A DNA stretch of 16,588 bases from Promethearchaeota archaeon. GTDB lineage: Archaea > Asgardarchaeota > Lokiarchaeia > Sigyniarchaeales > SOKP01. The notes beneath the pieces were generated by a model. It saw nothing but the letters and a program-made list of their open reading frames with translations, was not told where the DNA came from and searched no databases. The position numbers were made by a program, and so were the translations under genes. Where the stretch lies: assembly GCA_016930515.1 (NCBI GenBank), contig JAFGGO010000001.1:1-16588 (forward strand), given 5' to 3'. Numbering within the stretch: the first letter of the stretch is position 1; the number at the start of each line of letters is the position of its first letter. Below, in pieces: positions 2,422 through 16,588 of this stretch.

Positions 2422-3081
2422 ATGACAGTATCCATATCCAAGCAACAAGACATCGTGTTAAAAGTAATTCAAGATTATTTGGATAATAACAGGGCTCTAA
2501 ATCTCGAAAAAGTGATTCCCTATATACGTAATATCCTCTCGAAGAAAAAAATCAATATAAACAGCAACGGTATAAAATTAATTATTAAAAACCTTGTCGA
2601 ACAACGCCATATCATTCAAGGTTCGAAGTTAACAAGAGATGATGTGTTAAACAACGAAAATAGGAGAAACACATACGAAACGATAAAAAATAATCCAGGA
2701 TGTTATTTTAATTTCCTTAGAAAACGACTCAATCTTTCAAACCACATCATTGCATGGCACCTCAACATCTTAATGAAATTCGAATATATAAAAAAAGCTA
2801 GCTTGGACAATCACGACATCTTCTTCAGCACCGAAGTTAAAAGCAAGGATTACGAAAAACTCTACTTGTTATCAAAAAAAAAATGCAAGAGAATGCTCTC
2901 ATTCATGAAAGATTTTGATGATGGTATAACGAAAACAATGGTTTCGACTAATCTTGGCATTCACTATAATATCGTTTCAAAATACTTTGAAAAATTGTTG
3001 AAAGTGGGAATAATCAATAAAAAATCTTTTTCTAATAAAACAACCTACTTTTTAAAACAAAAATATATTTCACTCGTTTAA
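2422..3081 (+). CDS. Multi-winged-helix transcriptional regulator, archaeal type (paralog 1)
   Basis: wHTH pattern VLNNENRRNTYETIKNNPG...LNLSNHIIAWHLNILMKF, and a second HTH GITKTMVSTNLGIHYNIVSKYFEKLLKVGII. Confidence 0.8.
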   Translation: MTVSISKQQDIVLKVIQDYLDNNRALNLEKVIPYIRNILSKKKININSNGIKLIIKNLVEQRHIIQGSKLTRDDVLNNENRRNTYETIKNNPGCYFNFLRKRLNLSNHIIAWHLNILMKFEYIKKASLDNHDIFFSTEVKSKDYEKLYLLSKKKCKRMLSFMKDFDDGITKTMVSTNLGIHYNIVSKYFEKLLKVGIINKKSFSNKTTYFLKQKYISLV

Positions 3082-3296: not shown

Positions 3297-3950
3297 ATGT
3301 CGTCATTGATATGTTTGAGCAAGGAAGAAGACGTGATTCTTGAATTGATACAAGATTACATGGAAAACAATAGGGCGTTCAAGTACGAAAAGATAGTTCC
3401 TTATATAAGAAACAATTTCGCCAGAACTTCAAGAAACATCAACGAAACGGGAATTATGAACATTTTGGAAGCGTTGGTGCAAAAAAGAGTAATTATTCCC
3501 GGTTCAAAGCTTACGAAAAGAATCGTACTTCAAAATCTAAACAGGCGAAAAATTTACGATTTCATCAAGAACAATCCGGGCTTGTATCTTAATATTATCA
3601 TTCGCAGGTTGAACATGCCAAATCACGTCATTACATGGCACTTAGATATATTAGTCAAATTTGGACAAATTAAAAAAGTCTTCTTGGATAATCACGATGC
3701 ATACTTTCATCCAAAAATAAAACCTTCTAATTATCTTTCTACTTACTTACTTTCCAATCCAAAATGCCAAAAAATTATATCTTATATAAAACAAGAAACG
3801 AATAAAAACAACACGACAAAAACTGGAATATCTAGAGCTCTCAAGATCCATTACAACACTGTATCGAAATATCTATTGAAATTAGAAAAACTTGGATTAG
3901 TCAAAAAAGAAATAATGAACCATCATAAAACATATTATAGAGTCGATTAA
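3297..3950 (+). CDS. Multi-winged-helix transcriptional regulator, archaeal type (paralog 2)
   Basis: Same motifs as 2422-3081 (GSKLT, NRR..Y..IKNNPG, NH...WHL.IL.KF, LDNHD, IHYN.VSKY..KL). Confidence 0.8.
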   Translation: MSSLICLSKEEDVILELIQDYMENNRAFKYEKIVPYIRNNFARTSRNINETGIMNILEALVQKRVIIPGSKLTKRIVLQNLNRRKIYDFIKNNPGLYLNIIIRRLNMPNHVITWHLDILVKFGQIKKVFLDNHDAYFHPKIKPSNYLSTYLLSNPKCQKIISYIKQETNKNNTTKTGISRALKIHYNTVSKYLLKLEKLGLVKKEIMNHHKTYYRVD

Positions 3951-6229: not shown

Positions 6230-7075
6230 TTGAAGGAAACCGTGTCAGATTCAGAAAAAACGGAAGAAATGGAAAAATACGAGAAAGAAACAGGAAAGTT
6301 TGCAATATGGCGCGGTGTGGTCACCGAAGGATTTAAAAAATGGCAGAAAGGAGAGAAAATATACGAACAGGATAAGGAAAGAATCACAATACTGGTTTCA
6401 GAAGAAAAAAAAAACAAATGGCAAAATTTTGCAAAAAAAGGAGAATTTTCTTCCATTTCAAAATTAATTAGGGTCGCAGTTGATTCTTATATTGAAGCTC
6501 AATTTCATCAAACTTCCTTTAGAACAATATCAAAAATAACCCATGGTCTTAAAGAACCACTCACATTGATTAAAGGATTTTCCCATATTATATTGGAAAA
6601 TTATAAAGACGATTTAAAGTGGGATGTTCTCGTTAAAATTAACGATATATTCGATCAAAGCCAAATTCTTGAAAAAAGGATAAATGAGATCTCCAAACAA
6701 CAAGAACCAGAAAATGAAAATTACGAAATTCTCATTGTTGATGACGATATATCTACAATAAAGGTATTAGCTAATTTTTTTCAGATTAAAGGTTATAAAT
6801 CTAAATCTATCAATTCGGGGGCGGGTGTGCTCGGTGAAATAATTCGAAATAATCCTCAAATCATACTACTTGATATAATGTTACCTGATATTAGCGGTTA
6901 TGAAATATGCAAGCAGATAAAAAGAAACGATAATTTAAAGACTAAGCGAGTTTATTTTATCTCTGCTATTCCAAGAGACGATATTGAGAAAAAAATGGAT
7001 GAAACTAAAGCAAATGGTTATTTTCTTAAGCCATTTAATTTTTCAGAACTTAAAGAATTGTTTAAATATCTCTGA
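6230..7075 (+). CDS. Response regulator-like fusion: N-terminal motif + ribbon-helix-helix + HisKA-like segment + receiver domain
   Basis: Receiver: ILIVDDD, LLDIMLPDISG, ISA, KPF. H-box-like THGLKEPLTLIKG. RHH-like ERITILVSEEKK..W...A......ISKLIRVAVDSYI. Confidence 0.85.
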   Translation: MKETVSDSEKTEEMEKYEKETGKFAIWRGVVTEGFKKWQKGEKIYEQDKERITILVSEEKKNKWQNFAKKGEFSSISKLIRVAVDSYIEAQFHQTSFRTISKITHGLKEPLTLIKGFSHIILENYKDDLKWDVLVKINDIFDQSQILEKRINEISKQQEPENENYEILIVDDDISTIKVLANFFQIKGYKSKSINSGAGVLGEIIRNNPQIILLDIMLPDISGYEICKQIKRNDNLKTKRVYFISAIPRDDIEKKMDETKANGYFLKPFNFSELKELFKYL

Positions 7076-10199: not shown

Positions 10200-10270
10200 A
10201 ATCTAATTCATCTAAAATAATTTTTCAGTTAACTTAATTATCAAGTAAAAATAAAACTTAAGTTATATAA

Positions 10271-10580
10271 AGAGAAAACCTATATCTTGATTCCAATCCT
10301 ACTGATAAGACCAAGGTTATCGTACGCCTCCACGCCCGCATCAAGATGCGTGAACTACTAACCTTACGATTGCTCTGTCCCCAGCCTGATCGAGTTTGGT
10401 ATTACGAGCTTATGACTTTCCTACAAAAGGCACTGCCCTGCAACCCACCATCCTGACCGGCGCTTCGCCGGAATACGATAGTGGCTATCAAGTACTCATG
10501 AAACCTTAATATAGGCATTTTCCGCTAAGAGCATTTTACGGTCTGTCGAGCGAGCGACTTCAAGCAGGCCCTAGCTGCCC
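10271..10580 (-). ncRNA. ffs: Signal recognition particle RNA (archaeal 7S)
   Basis: GC-richer 310-nt island. Helix 8 SRP54 site CGAU-CAGG-CUG-GGGA-CAG-AGCA-AUCG. Helix 6 GGGC-AG-UGC-CUUUU-GUAG-GAAAG-UCAU-AA-GCUC with a GNAR loop. Long helix 5 pairings CCUAUAU/AUAUAGG, GGUUUCA/UGGAAUC, UAUCGUA/UACGAUA, CAGGAUG/CAUCUUG and GUGGGUUGC/GUAGUUCAC. Ends are approximate. Confidence 0.92.
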
Positions 10581-10601
10581 ATTAAGGATAATACTTCTAA
10601 C

Positions 10602-10680: not shown

Positions 10681-11076
10681 TTATTTTATTGTTGCTTTGA
10701 TGTAATCAATTATTTCTGAAACCATTGCACCCGGACCAAACACATTTGAAACTCCAATTTCTTTCAAGATTTTGAAATCTCTTGTTGGGATGACCCCACC
10801 AACGAGGATGATAAAATGTCCAAACACGCCTTGTTCCTTTAGAAGGTCGATGACCTGTTGAGAATAAGCAATATGTGCTCCAGAGTGAATGCTGAGCCCA
10901 ATTACATCCACGTCTTCTTGAATGGCCGTTTCAACGATCTGTTCGGCGTTTTGAAACCCTCCGAAAATAATCTCCATTCCAGCGTCTCTTAAGGCCCGTG
11001 CCACGACTATTCCCCCTCTATAATGTCCGTCCAATCCGGGTTTTGTTATTAACACTCTAATTTTTTTATCTATCAT
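10681..11076 (-). CDS. Cobalamin-binding small subunit of an acyl-CoA mutase
   Basis: KPGLDGHYRGG (DxHxxG), A.QEDVDVIGLS and VGGVIP. An AGGAG SD lies in the 18-bp gap after the large subunit. Confidence 0.93.
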   Translation of the reverse strand: MIDKKIRVLITKPGLDGHYRGGIVVARALRDAGMEIIFGGFQNAEQIVETAIQEDVDVIGLSIHSGAHIAYSQQVIDLLKEQGVFGHFIILVGGVIPTRDFKILKEIGVSNVFGPGAMVSEIIDYIKATIK

Positions 11077-11094
11077 TGATTTCTCTCCTTTTGA

Positions 11095-12768
11095 TTAAAT
11101 TGCTAGGGGAGGATCCCATATACCAAACACTTCCCGGTAAATATCACAAATCTCGCCGATGGTAGCTCCAGCCTTGGTCACTTCCATTATTATCGGCATT
11201 ACATTTTCTTCCTTTTCGCAAACATTTCGAAGCTTATCTAAAAGAGATACAATTTTGGCGTTATCCCTTCTTTCCTTGAGCATTTTAATACGACGAACTT
11301 CAATCTCGATTGCGTCCTTGTTGGTTCGAAACACATCGGTACAATCATCGTAGGAAACCTCGTACTTATTAACGCCCAACATAATTTCTTCTCCATTTTC
11401 AATACGCTTCCTTCTTTTATGGAAGGCATCTCTCATTTCCTTGTATAACCAACCCGAGGATAGGGCTTTATCGATGCTCCCAATCTTTTCGATTTTATCT
11501 ATATAATCCCACACTCGATCTTCGATTTCGTCTGTTAACCATTCCACATAATAGGATCCGGCCAATGGATCAACCGTATTCGTGATGCGCGTCTCCTCGG
11601 CAATTACTTGTTGGGTCCGTAAAGCAATTAAAGCAGCTTCTTCGGTTGGAAGACAAATTGCCTCGTCGTAAGAATTAGTATGAAGTGACTGGCACCCCCC
11701 AAGGTTAGCTTCTAGTGCTTGAATGGCAGTACGCACTATATTTACTTTTGGGGTCTGAGCTGTTAAAGAACTACCTGCTGTTTGCACGTGAAATCTAAAC
11801 TGTAAGGAGTGAGGATCTTTGCAATCGTACCTATCTCTCATTAGTTTCGCCCATATCCTTCGAGCAGCACGGTATTTTGCTATTTCCTCAAAGAAATCTT
11901 TATGAGCTGCCAGGTGGAAGGCTAATCTGTTTACAAAATCATCGGCTTTCCAACCCCTCTCCACTAAATTATCGATATGAGAGCATGCGCTTGCGAATAC
12001 GAATCCTAACTCTTGAATTGCACTTATACCCCCTTCACGGTAATTATATCCCGTAAAATTTATGGGGTGCCATTTTGGAACATTTTTTTGTGGTACGGTC
12101 CATTCGATAAAATCACAGGCTAATCGAAGAAGGTGATTCGGGGGCGAGTTTTTATAAGGAATATATCCAACCGTCATTGTCAAGATATCGTTTTGAGTCG
12201 TTCCTATGAGTTGCTTTATATCATATCCGCGCATCTTAGCAGCATTGAAATACATCGCACTCACAGGTGCACAAGTAAAAGGCTCAACAACCAATGCTAC
12301 ACTAATTTTATCGATAGGGACGCCTTCAGTTAAAGCTAGCAAGCTATCGACGCAATAAAGAGGAACTCCAGAGGTACCTACTTCAGGAGCACCATCTTTA
12401 TTTGTAGGATCAATACCATTAAAGGTTAAAGTATCAACAGCCGCACTAAAACCCGTTTCTCCGTTCTTATAGAGATATTTCCAACGCAAGTTCGTTTCTT
12501 CAGGCGTGCCATGGCCACTAAAAAGTCGCATTGTCCACAATCGACCTCTGTACATCGAGGGATAGACACCTCTAGTATAAGGAGGCGCACCAGGAAAACC
12601 AATCTCTTCCAAGTAATCTCCCTTGACATCTAATGGGGTATAAACTCTTTTTATCGGAATTTCCGAATCAGTGACGAATTTTCCGTCGTTTTCGTTATTT
12701 TGATTAAATTTAGAATCCCAATTTTCTTTTTCTTCTTTAATCTTATCCAAATAATTTTTATCAAACAA
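11095..12768 (-). CDS. B12-dependent acyl-CoA mutase large subunit (MCM/ICM superfamily) with atypical specificity residues
   Basis: Motifs PG.PPYTRGVYP.MYRGR.WT.R, GT.QNDIL, FFEEIAK.RAARR, HVQTAG.SL, GGCQSLHTNSYDEA, ALRTQQ and DPLAGSYYVE. TTG start. Confidence 0.92.
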   Translation of the reverse strand: MFDKNYLDKIKEEKENWDSKFNQNNENDGKFVTDSEIPIKRVYTPLDVKGDYLEEIGFPGAPPYTRGVYPSMYRGRLWTMRLFSGHGTPEETNLRWKYLYKNGETGFSAAVDTLTFNGIDPTNKDGAPEVGTSGVPLYCVDSLLALTEGVPIDKISVALVVEPFTCAPVSAMYFNAAKMRGYDIKQLIGTTQNDILTMTVGYIPYKNSPPNHLLRLACDFIEWTVPQKNVPKWHPINFTGYNYREGGISAIQELGFVFASACSHIDNLVERGWKADDFVNRLAFHLAAHKDFFEEIAKYRAARRIWAKLMRDRYDCKDPHSLQFRFHVQTAGSSLTAQTPKVNIVRTAIQALEANLGGCQSLHTNSYDEAICLPTEEAALIALRTQQVIAEETRITNTVDPLAGSYYVEWLTDEIEDRVWDYIDKIEKIGSIDKALSSGWLYKEMRDAFHKRRKRIENGEEIMLGVNKYEVSYDDCTDVFRTNKDAIEIEVRRIKMLKERRDNAKIVSLLDKLRNVCEKEENVMPIIMEVTKAGATIGEICDIYREVFGIWDPPLAI

Positions 12769-12979
12769 TATAATTCACGAATTTATTATGCTATCTTAAT
12801 AAAGAGAAATACCTATTATTTCTTCTATATTGTTAAATTAAACAAAATAAAAATATTTGACCTAAATTATTCAGATTGTCGCGAACAAACTAATAAAAAT
12901 ATTTCATACATTTATTTTTTAACCTTGGTTTTTATTGTTATAATATTAGAAAGGAAAAAGGAATATTATTCAATAAGAG

Positions 12980-14786
12980 ATGAAAAAAAATTACAGAAAT
13001 CGATTTTAATCCCATTAAAGAAGAGATTCGAGCGGGTAATTTTGAAAAAGCGCTAGATGGCCTAGTTAATCTCATAAACGACGATAATTACTCTTCGTTA
13101 GAATACATTTTTCAAGGCATCCTAGAAATTCAAGAAAACGGACATTATCTAACAAAAAATCAATTAAAAAAAGTGAAACCATTATTAGACTCATATGATG
13201 ATAATGTACAGGAAATGGCTACTAAAGTTTATACGAATGCCATAATCCGAAATATGTCTTCGTTGCAAAACGAAGTGGGAGATATCTTGTTTAAAATGAG
13301 ATATTTAGAGCCCGTGGTTAGAGAGAAAGTTATTGATTTCATAATCAATGTTTATAGCGACATTTCTAATTTCGAAAAACAAATATTGCATGGGTTAATA
13401 TCAGGATTAAAAGACGATTTATGGAACATCAGAAAGAGGATTATCGAATTTTTTAACGATATTTTCCTGGATAGACCAAAACTAATTAATGAATTTGACG
13501 AAAAGCTCCAAGTACTTCTCGAAGAAAAGGATATTGATGTCATGAGGGAGGGATTAGATTTCTTGCTTAGGATTTACACTAAATCATATTCAAGCGAAGA
13601 TTTGGAGAAGCTTTTAAAATCATTTCTCCAGAAAGATTGGATTGCTCAAGAGAAAATCTTATTTCTAATTGAAAAGCTAGCTATTAAACGAAAGGAGCTT
13701 ATAAAACCAATTACATCAGATTTAGTGCGCTTGCTTGACCACGACGACTATTTGGTAAACAAGGCTGTGAGGAAAACCATCGAAGATATCATGGAGCACA
13801 ATATAGAAATATTTGATGATGTATTCTTCTCGTTCATAACCGAAGACCAAATCGATAATTTGGAATCTATTGAAATTCTCCTGAGACATTCAATTCTAAA
13901 GTTTGGATTTAATAGATTTTATAACATCTATTCAAAATTTTCTGTTGAGGATGATCAAATTAAGAAAAGTCTAATTAATATCATAAGAAAGATTAGCACG
14001 AATAATCCTAAAATTTCAGAGAAGATCTTTTCTCAACTGATAAAAAAAGTTTTGGAAAACCTTGATTTAACAAATTTTAATAAATTAAAGGGGCTACTTA
14101 GTCGCAACAACCAATACCCCTTTTACCTTACATGTTTAAACGCTTTAAAAGATAGTATTCCCTTACTGAATCCCGAACAGGAGCAGAGAAGACTTGAACT
14201 TATAAAATTCTTATCAGATTCAATACCACAAATCAATATCAACGAATTGAGTGATTGGTTAAGTTCAAGTCTTCAAAATGGTCCAATTCAAATAGACACG
14301 ATCTGTTCACATTTTAATATTCAAAAAATTCATCTAATAGAAATTTTAAAGAAATTAATGGAAGACGGCCAGCTTCGGGCAATAATACATGACGATACAA
14401 TAAAACCAAAAGAAAGTATTGTTGAACCAATTACGGATATTCAATTTTTCAAACAATGGAAGGTGTTTCAAAACCCTGGAGAAGAAGAATATCGGATCAA
14501 GTTATCCGTTCAATTGAAAAATATGTCTGGGAAAAAAATCACTGATTTAAAAATCGTCTTGGATGTGCCTCAAGTACTCTTAGTTGAAGAGAAATCAAAG
14601 GAAGAAATTAATAATATACCAAGCATTTTAGATGAAAATCAACAACTTGTTATAACTTGGATGTTTAAGAAATATTACGAAAGAGAGAGTCGTCCTATAT
14701 CAAGCAGGATTAAGGTTATAATAATTTACCAAAAGGAAGACAAGGCATTCAGTATAAAAAAGAGGTTGGATGTACTCTTATTATAA
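12980..14786 (+). CDS. HEAT-repeat protein with a PCI-like winged helix and a C-terminal Ig-like (adaptin-ear-like) domain; 5' end frameshifted at an A8 run
   Basis: The track ORF 13173-14786 stays open upstream to 12984. HEAT-like units LISGLKDDLWNIRK, LQVLLEEKDIDV and LVRLLDHDDYLVNK. ATG 12980 is one base out of frame. Confidence 0.75.
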
Positions 14787-14794
14787 AAAAAAAA

Positions 14795-16507
14795 TTAATT
14801 TAAAGATTTGTTAGGAATTCTAAGATCCTTGTAAAGCGAGATCTTACCTTCCTCTATTTCATCCTGTTCTCGACTGAGAAAACCAATATAAACCCATTTT
14901 ATCATATCTTGAAGGAGGTAATGACCGTCCCAAGGCATACCAACAGGTTGAATATTGTGTTCGCCGATCCTAGGAAACCTATAAGCCCCTATTAAAGAAA
15001 ATTCCTCGGCAGTATTTTTAATGAACTCTTCGGAACCAAATAAAGAAATAGTTTGTAAATATTGCTGCAAGTTTTCCGTTCTTATTTTATGGATGAGATC
15101 TTGAATACTCGAAATCCTCGTGACGATTATAAATCTATCTTGACACATATCCATTTCCATCATTGAGGGCAGGTTTCTCAAGTAAACAACTGTCCAATCT
15201 AACCCATTATTTGGTGGATTGATGATGGTTGCGTTTTTTTTTATTGCGTGATTCATAAAAAAATATTCACGTTTTTTAGCAATTTGAAGTCCGTCAGCTT
15301 GTGTGAGGTTTGCTCTAGGTAACATTTGGTCAGTGGTTTTCAATCCCCTTGCCAACATTTTTGCGAATCCTAATGGAGATAATTCCGTTATTTTATTTCT
15401 CAAGCCTTTAATGGAGCGTTTCATAAGAGCTTTCATATCAAATCCATCAGAATGACTTTCTTGAAACATTTTATCTAGTGAACCATTAAATGATTTGATG
15501 GGATCTGAAGTTTTTTCAATGTCAGATCCATTACTAAAGTAGTCACCCATTGCATCTTGAAATATAGTAGACTGTTGTGGTTTATCGACAACATACAATA
15601 CTCGTGGGCTTAAACAAGCTTTTTGATTCCAACATACCACATCTATGGCAATTCTCTGTGCTATCTCTTCCATCTTATGTTCATCTGCGAATATATCTTC
15701 AGAAATCACGCTGAAAGATAATTTAGGCCCATTATCGATTATCTTGATACCATAACGGTACCCTCTTCTTCTTATGTCTTCGATGGACTGAATACCCCCC
15801 CAAGCTAATACGCAATTAATATTTCCTGAAGAAAATAAATCGTCATATATATCTCCACGACTTCCCTTCCAATAAAGAGCAGCTATTTCTTTTGAAATTT
15901 TTTTATCCACATCGGCAATAGATTCACATAATTTTATCGTCATATATGGATCTTCATGTGAAAGTTTTATTAAATTAACATTTTTCGTTATCAAGCCATA
16001 AAATACGGTTAATAAACCTAAGTTAAATGCGTTTCCCGCAAGATTGTGAAGAACAACACCCCTTGGCTGTGCATGAATGCGCGTGTTTAATTTGGGAACC
16101 CAATCTTCTAAATAGTGTTTTCCTCCGATTTCACCGAGTAATTGTCCTTCTGCGGTTTTTTTTTCCCATAAAAAAAGTGTTCCCATTAGTTCTATTTCAC
16201 ATAATTGTTTTGATTGTCCCGTCATCATAGGTATTATTTCCAAGGCTTCTTTTCTTATGTCATAATTAGGATCACGCCATCGATCACCCACTTGGTCGAT
16301 AACATTGAGAATATCGTCAATATGCCTGTCGTGAGCCCTTCTTTTTTTCAAGGAAAGATTTTTAGCAGTTTCCAAGATAAATTCCTTATCAAATACTGGA
16401 AACTCGATCTCTAAAACATCTTCTTGTCGCTTAATGGTTTCAATCGTGGTGTTTTCAGTATAAACTGGTTTAAAAATAAAGCCAGGTATCTTAATATGTT
16501 TATTCAA
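14795..16507 (-). CDS. LuxC-like acyl-CoA reductase (ALDH superfamily)
   Basis: PRGVVLHNLAGN, NLIKLS, LAWGG, GPKLSF, DV..WNQKACLSP (catalytic Cys), YLQTI, GAYRF and PWDG. TTG 16507 after GGGGT is preferred over the track's GTG 16558. Confidence 0.85.
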   Translation of the reverse strand: MNKHIKIPGFIFKPVYTENTTIETIKRQEDVLEIEFPVFDKEFILETAKNLSLKKRRAHDRHIDDILNVIDQVGDRWRDPNYDIRKEALEIIPMMTGQSKQLCEIELMGTLFLWEKKTAEGQLLGEIGGKHYLEDWVPKLNTRIHAQPRGVVLHNLAGNAFNLGLLTVFYGLITKNVNLIKLSHEDPYMTIKLCESIADVDKKISKEIAALYWKGSRGDIYDDLFSSGNINCVLAWGGIQSIEDIRRRGYRYGIKIIDNGPKLSFSVISEDIFADEHKMEEIAQRIAIDVVCWNQKACLSPRVLYVVDKPQQSTIFQDAMGDYFSNGSDIEKTSDPIKSFNGSLDKMFQESHSDGFDMKALMKRSIKGLRNKITELSPLGFAKMLARGLKTTDQMLPRANLTQADGLQIAKKREYFFMNHAIKKNATIINPPNNGLDWTVVYLRNLPSMMEMDMCQDRFIIVTRISSIQDLIHKIRTENLQQYLQTISLFGSEEFIKNTAEEFSLIGAYRFPRIGEHNIQPVGMPWDGHYLLQDMIKWVYIGFLSREQDEIEEGKISLYKDLRIPNKSLN

Positions 16508-16588
16508 GTGATTTACCCCTAATCGCTTAATAGCTATATAATATAAAACAATATTCACTATTTAAACAAAGGTAAAAAAAAAAAAAAA

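Follow-up and report, generated by a model that had tools for sequence, protein, structure and literature searches.

The stretch of DNA analysed here, referred to as the window (16,588 nucleotides, contig C174 of a 4.0-Mb genome), encodes a protein whose single chain begins with a HEAT-type solenoid, continues with a winged helix and ends in a beta-sandwich of Ig-like fold and adaptin-ear type. With modest confidence, we are inclined to regard it as a lokiarchaeial scaffold for protein interactions, soluble and without enzymatic function, that serves, presumably through binding, a linked gene cluster encoding Roadblock, gelsolin, FIST, LuxE and LuxC proteins. A first-pass annotation of the DNA had suggested an undescribed scaffold, which is a fair description, the domain combination being apparently undescribed in the literature searched. 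The features that matter for the argument are listed below, with residues numbered as in P0001 (residue 1 at window position 12984).

12977..12983, + strand: GAGATGA, a putative ribosome-binding-site-like stretch similar to GGAGGTGA, 6 nt upstream of the ATT
12990..14786, + strand: scaffold gene, 598-aa HEAT–winged helix–ear protein (clade A short form), probable ATT start
12990..14228, + strand: HEAT-type alpha-solenoid, residues 3-415, about 11 helix pairs (AF2 model; structural matches Z 12-15)
14229..14411, + strand: winged helix of PCI/UFL1-DDRGK1 type, residues 416-476 (structure matches, Z 8.6-9.0)
14433..14783, + strand: Ig-like beta-sandwich of adaptin-ear (GAE) type, residues 484-600, without platform subdomain (Foldseek, VIA)
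14795..16558, - strand: gene for a LuxC-like acyl-CoA reductase, convergent with the scaffold gene (Pfam LuxC, E 1e-74)

The gene lies in a 600-codon open frame (12984-14786, + strand) that is coding throughout and not a chance opening, since more than 20 distinct homologues are conserved over its entire length at 30-83% identity; the named ones all come from Promethearchaeota, that is, from Lokiarchaeia. Standard gene calling places the start at least 61 codons late. The first-pass annotation had instead begun the protein at an ATG (12980) brought into frame by removing one base from a run of eight A, which is probably wrong: that ATG is out of frame, lies within the GAGATGA stretch, and the orthologues favour the ATT at 12990. 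When 14 genome copies were aligned at the first conserved residue, the start position was occupied by ATT, ATA or ATC in 12 and by ATG in two; nine of the 12 ATH-start copies had no upstream in-frame ATG, GTG or TTG, and in two ATH-start copies a stop codon directly preceded the ATA. Most orthologues also carry a purine-rich G-run at a comparable distance from the start, and a relative of 83% identity (L066) keeps the same 10-base spacing from a purine-rich stretch to the ATT with the homopolymer absent. Judging from this comparison of sequences, translation probably begins at the ATT at 12990 and gives 598 residues without frame correction, with GAGATGA as a candidate ribosome-binding site. 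One relative (L067) has an in-frame ATG three codons upstream of the start position, which leaves some room for the corrected-frame version. A programmed frameshift at the A8 run was rejected as unnecessary, given that relatives do without such a run. Genome-wide, a crude ribosome-site score revealed a modest excess of ATT (12% vs 7%, p 0.007 uncorrected) and none of ATA, so that it is the orthologues that carry the argument for the ATT start. This probable start explains why database entries of the protein miss 60-80 residues. Apparent Ile-codon starts where relatives have Met were also seen in the second roadblock gene of the same genome (G000 C85:2032-3000, L034) and in a gelsolin gene (L016:9547-10107), and these fit ATH starts. 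Promoter, repeat and tRNA scans of the scaffold locus gave nothing above chance.

The luxC gene next to the scaffold gene closes a Roadblock–Roadblock–gelsolin–FIST–LuxE–LuxC run, and the window contig ends there. The first four cluster genes of this genome were located on another contig (C85:119-3421), and luxE was not found by blastp in the assembly. Scaffold proteins of the type found in the window belong to a clade, called clade A, that is present in 17 of the 161 genomes of the class. A LuxC orthologue (at least 53% identity) occurs in all 17 carriers, and scaffold gene and luxC are adjacent in 15 of them, the others being G013, with a rearranged double locus, and G282, in which both genes lie at contig ends. 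A single genome (G004) has the LuxC orthologue without clade A, on a contig that ends 34 bases beyond luxC. Adjacency is kept after an orientation flip (G035, L054) and in long clade-A forms of the protein (L053 and the P0034 contig), and in G037 two dissimilar scaffold copies each have their own luxC. The pairwise identities of scaffold and LuxC co-vary (Mantel rho 0.86, n=17), a value that is inflated by kin and overstates the link, because genes that are linked have a common past even if their products never interact. Clade A is inherited together with the cluster, and the link between them is genetic. Instead of coat or GTPase genes, the steady neighbours are Roadblock, FIST, LuxC and LuxE genes.

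Several loci showed further peculiarities. In L053 (6989-12889), from a GC-rich genome (GCA_054681365.1), two long clade-A genes stand in tandem next to luxC, preceded upstream by a TPR/longin-like gene and a DO-GTPase1 gene. G013 carries two partial cluster copies about 18 kb apart (C14:36215-58510; L005, L014, L017, L047), and in one of them an intact scaffold gene adjoins a luxC fragment, while in the other luxC is intact and the adjoining scaffold gene a fragment. In the present genome, six tandem paralogs of about 180 aa (L034:3884-8017, G000 C85) lie immediately upstream of the gene for the first Roadblock protein. The second Roadblock protein has a long acidic linker and a C-terminal helical bundle, and a similar bundle occurs in two other proteins of the genome (C122, C23); its identification as Vps28-C found no support in PDB, Pfam, Atlas or hhalign comparisons. 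A TPR gene near a more distant cassette in G168 was considered as a scaffold homologue and rejected, as it is not one.

A genetic link could also arise if the short protein were a passenger, that is, a redundant, shortened duplicate of a core scaffold that rides with a mobile cluster and does not work with it. The scaffold gene is usually on the strand opposite to the cluster, and is therefore not co-transcribed with it in those loci; it diverges faster than LuxC (mean identity 35% vs 57%); a frameshift within the winged helix splits it in the G016 assembly (C314:1887-3520, L010), and fragment copies exist in G013. Moreover, no scaffold gene was present within the 20 kb fetched around the G168 cassette (Roadblock–FIST–LuxE–LuxC, from another order), meaning that the cassette can exist without the scaffold. 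We nevertheless hold a passenger to be unlikely, for nearly all carriers retain an intact frame at 30-50% identity, adjacency survives both inversions and the change from long to short form, and no carrier genome is without its LuxC orthologue.

The origin of the protein could be followed within its own family. A profile search retrieved long relatives of 910-1000 residues (a family of about 970 residues) with the same trunk and tail, between which lies a helical rod of about 360 residues. The trunk is collinear over 345 columns (hhalign 99.3%) with that of one long form, paralog B, which is present essentially as a single copy in 142 of 154 genomes of one lokiarchaeial order and in 0 of 246 other Asgard genomes, two candidates per genome having been scored at E<=1e-40. 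The copy of the present genome, at C161, is cut by the contig end. The survey of Asgard genomes suggested in the first-pass annotation places the family in Lokiarchaeia, within a single order. In a tree of 55 sequences the short proteins form a single clade (support 100) nested among the long clade-A forms, namely P0034 and the L053 tandem pair (support 93 for the short clade plus P0034), and every short form lacks the same 362 columns, at residue 415. The root was set on the divergent f4 group, and any root outside clade A likewise gives rod loss. As far as alignment and tree can tell, the window protein is a rod-less derivative of the ~970-residue family, produced by a single deletion.

The tail has a kinship of its own. 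It aligned over both of its domains with a zinc-finger/UFL1-PCI/GAE/Vps28 protein of 796 aa encoded in the same genome at C67:17170-19557 (hhalign 91.7%, E 8e-7, 146 columns), and the first-ranked Atlas match of the tail belongs to the Asgard UFL1/PCI–appendage–Vps28 family, multidomain proteins that unite winged helices of the UFL1/PCI kind with an appendage of adaptin/COPI type and with Vps28-C (Liu et al., bioRxiv 10.1101/2020.10.19.343400; Makarova et al., 10.1101/2024.02.06.579148). On this profile evidence the winged-helix/ear tail is homologous to that known family. As in its members, a homologous winged helix directly precedes the Ig ear; unlike them, the scaffold protein has a HEAT solenoid at its N-terminus and a single winged helix where they have an array, and lacks platform and Vps28-C, all scaffold family members ending after the last Ig strand. 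Overall, the evidence leans towards domain shuffling within Lokiarchaeia over an inherited trunk-ear layout.

Paralog B has no link to the Roadblock–LuxC cluster. It directly precedes selD in three families and in most of the loci read (L021, L022, L024, L026-L029, L032, L033), and in one family it is head to head with aIF2-gamma (L022-L024), which may be plain synteny. A member of the f4 family (L057:1-9882, G033) has Vps4 and two ESCRT-II genes about 4 kb away, an arrangement that is not found in the related G027 locus.

The AF2 model of the scaffold protein (mean pLDDT 85.9, pTM 0.66) has 23 helices in residues 9-413, arranged in about 11 HEAT-like pairs, followed by a three-helix plus beta-wing unit (residues 419-475) and a beta-sandwich (residues 486-599). 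The same layout had been proposed by eye, at the same places: the segment then taken for a winged helix (14280-14405, the quoted letters starting at 14283) coincides with the modelled one, and the strand quoted from the beta-rich end (14496) falls within the modelled sandwich. The AlphaFold prediction recommended at that time returned a confident, three-part model. The protein is soluble, with no transmembrane stretch (maximum 19-residue hydropathy 0.85); invariant residues of the family are mostly hydrophobic or HEAT-motif positions, and no enzyme family matches were found. The first-pass annotation had named an architecture common in bacteria as a ground for rejecting its proposal; no bacterial protein combining HEAT repeats, winged helix and ear was found among 1.84 billion representatives. 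In an ESM Atlas feature search with the whole protein all scores were below 0.8.

By analogy of layout, the protein may be said to resemble an adaptor large subunit. In AP-1 to AP-5 and COPI large subunits a HEAT trunk likewise comes first and an ear-type Ig sandwich last (ear Z 9.3-11.5), and the absence of a platform is shared with gamma-adaptin. The protein might accordingly descend from AP/COPI large-subunit ancestry and operate on membranes in an AP-like half-complex with small subunits of longin/roadblock fold, a proposal to which we give little credence. In its favour, ear domains lead both fold searches, the trunk profile matches AP-1 beta-1 best among PDB sequences (E 0.0024, positions 22-288), gamma-COP holds rank 6 in the full-length Foldseek search, and the linked cluster contains two roadblock genes. 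The layout would in addition fill a gap reported by Eme et al. 2023 (PMC10307638), who record Adaptin_N in many Asgard lineages with no appendage right downstream. The trunk, however, points elsewhere. PP2A-A ties with beta-adaptin in the same profile search (E 0.005), and with the paralog B profile it scores far above it. By structure the trunk is closer to TSC2 (Z 15.2), importin-alpha (15.0) and CAND1 (14.9) than to beta-COP (13.3) or the AP beta chains (11.7-12.2), adaptin chains occupying ranks 19-49 (Z 11.7-13.3, vs 15 for unrelated solenoids). Across the homologues, Pfam matches in the trunk are weak but consistent (HEAT, Cnd1, Adaptin_N), and Adaptin_N matches 2 of 21 family members (best E 3.7e-6), no better than Cnd1 or PP2A-A. 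Trunk conservation is highest in residues 100-300, and the nearest HEAT matches outside the family include NACHT/STAND-HEAT proteins that lack a winged-helix/ear tail. With 415 residues, the trunk is also shorter than the 570-590 of solved AP trunks. It is a generic HEAT solenoid with no specific likeness to adaptin trunks.

Nor is the trunk joined to the ear as in adaptins. The place of their flexible, unstructured hinge is taken by the winged helix, a folded domain (416-476), together with a linker of six residues modelled at low confidence (478-483), to which the long forms add the helical rod. Lacking both a trunk specifically related to Adaptin_N and such a hinge, the protein should not be filed as an AP/COPI large subunit. 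A Pfam match to the sigma-type longin (PF01217) was not found in this genome, and the control was likewise without a match anywhere.

The sandwich itself is of the C-terminal ear (GAE) type at the level of fold. Its Foldseek ranks 1-10 are all gamma-adaptin ears or GGA GAE domains (E about 1e-4), and in VIA the alpha-ear comes with Z 11.5 (rmsd 1.9, 101 aligned) and GGA2 with 11.0. These values are followed by TRAP-beta (10.3), BBS9 (10.2) and bacterial alpha-2-macroglobulin (10.1-10.4), so the lead of the ears over the macroglobulin and TRAP-beta domains amounts to about 1 Z, and specific kinship to ears is weakly indicated. Structures of CARDB or DUF11 were absent among the best 50 fold matches listed for the sandwich. 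Pfam, run on 33 Ig domains of the family, returned Alpha_adaptinC2 in 7, GAE_BBS1 in 5 and DUF11 in 1. An Ig-only profile met no ear domain at E<=10 among PDB sequences, and the only Ig match outside the family in the 1.84-billion-protein search was P0075, a CARDB-repeat protein (E 1.7e-4). The adaptin-ear reading of the first-pass annotation therefore stands as to the top structural matches, adaptin and GGA ears, and narrowly so against generic Ig folds. A part of the R/K-x-Y ear motif read there also held: Y582 is invariant in the family, but R575 and K577 vary (commonest residue 25% and 45%, respectively), and surface basic residues of the penultimate strand of the ear are not conserved. 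R575 and K577 are the putative counterparts of the basic residues with which the gamma-ear binds peptides.

CARDB, NEW3, DUF11 and alpha-2-macroglobulin Ig domains of prokaryotes share the same broad sandwich, but none of these proteins has a HEAT–winged helix part, and P0075 differs further in its signal-peptide-like start and repeated Ig domains. The genome itself encodes three DUF11-type Ig-repeat proteins of 690-730 aa (C186:22350-24551, C115:11350-13416 and C157:15455-17584; L060-L062), with a partial match to the adaptor mu C-terminal model and a weak one to Alpha_adaptinC2; one of the three sits inside a chemotaxis-like gene cluster.

With a generic trunk, an ear lead of this size, a family limited to a single lokiarchaeial order, with no member found in the remaining Asgard genomes covered by the search, and a tail from an already described Asgard family, the coat component entertained in the first-pass annotation is unsupported. 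It is similarly improbable that the family is an archaeal relative of the adaptin/COPI trunk-plus-ear ancestor, in which clade A and the roadblock pair would form an adaptor-like complex tying a self-made lipid-aldehyde signal to membrane/actin remodelling.

The winged helix supports another comparison. In PCI subunits of the proteasome lid, CSN and eIF3, and in UFL1/DDRGK1, a solenoid is also followed by a similar winged helix (Z 8.4-9.0), and the protein could be a PCI-complex subunit forming a horseshoe of the lid/CSN/eIF3 kind with paralog B and the multi-winged-helix protein. The best structural match is a COP9 signalosome chain (9efq_B; Z 9.0, rmsd 1.8, 62 aligned), Pfam PCI matches weakly in 11 of 37 family tails, and two long copies stand in tandem in L053. 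Still, UFL1/DDRGK1 (Z 8.8) and the bacterial regulator NiaR (Z 8.6) tie with the COP9 chain, so that the PCI type assigned by eye is best stated as PCI/UFL1-like, and the window protein itself has no Pfam PCI match. PCI subunits contribute a C-terminal helix to a helical bundle; here the solenoid is of the HEAT type and the chain ends in an Ig sandwich, with no helix to join a bundle. Only three proteins with such a winged helix were seen in the genome. A PCI complex seems quite unlikely.

Very improbable, finally, is a relative of the Integrator subunits INTS4 and INTS7, which would scaffold an RNA-processing or phosphatase complex: these subunits share HEAT repeats followed by a terminal beta-sandwich and are the top natural full-length Foldseek matches (INTS4 at ranks 2-4, 7 and 11, INTS7 at rank 10), but the INTS4 superpositions (TM 0.21-0.28, rmsd >20 A) indicate, as those of gamma-COP and INTS7 (all with TM <0.3), shared layout only as far as the model goes, the scaffold differs in having a winged helix, INTS4 is absent among the matches listed for the isolated tail, and no gene for an INTS9/INTS11-type beta-CASP nuclease lies beside clade A in the loci read. 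A 2026 preprint (PMC13734099) describes an Asgard-eukaryote structural cluster of INTS4 with 57 sequences, most of them from Lokiarchaeia; judged by size and taxon, these may be paralog B, and the authors caution that repeat folds converge.

For the scaffold of the Roadblock–LuxC cluster that we prefer, homology and tree outline the following history. A HEAT solenoid with a helical rod was fused to a winged-helix/ear cassette akin to the Asgard UFL1-PCI/appendage/Vps28 family, and the fusion product of about 970 residues was retained as the near-universal single-copy gene of the order, namely paralog B. A further copy, that of clade A, came to be associated with the Roadblock–Roadblock–gelsolin–FIST–LuxE–LuxC cluster, and later rod loss gave the 598-residue form. 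Each of the three domains belongs to a type through which known proteins contact other proteins, and a mode of action can be proposed on this basis. The conserved trunk would hold at least one cluster product, either a roadblock/FIST sensor or the LuxCE reductase. By analogy with PCI and UFL1/DDRGK1 winged helices, the winged helix could mediate homo- or hetero-oligomerisation. Ear-type domains are known to bind peptide motifs and to pair with another ear (PMC7018513), and the ear of the scaffold may do either, by analogy with adaptin and BBSome GAE domains. The sensing or aldehyde-making function of the cluster would in this way be assembled and coupled to the winged-helix/appendage adaptor network of the cell.

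What appears new is the HEAT–winged helix–ear combination, and what is known is the Asgard class of shuffled eukaryote-like interaction proteins to which it would be added; no paper was found on the short form or its cluster. Since the family unites a HEAT trunk with an ear-type domain in the same chain, it offers a natural test of whether eukaryotes inherited this layout or whether it arose on two occasions through domain shuffling. The fixed six-gene cluster of the short form supplies a short list of candidate partners. Paralog B is apparently present in single-contig genomes of the order, presumably including those of cultured strains, and is thereby amenable to localisation and pull-down.

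Other features were noted in the window. A split B12-dependent acyl-CoA mutase (large and B12-binding subunits; 10681-12768, - strand) is divergent from the scaffold gene, a neighbourhood shared with the two closest relatives only. A protein encoded at 6230-7075 (+ strand) combines ribbon-helix-helix-like and HisKA-like segments with a receiver domain, with no match to a kinase ATPase domain. Two tandem paralogous winged-helix regulator genes are found at 2422-3081 and 3297-3950 (+ strand), the first matching HVO_0163-like HTH. At 10270-10598 (- strand) lies a divergent archaeal SRP RNA gene, single-copy in the genome, which matches Rfam Archaea_SRP over the whole model with 56.8 bits (E 5.6e-12; below the gathering score of 96.5).
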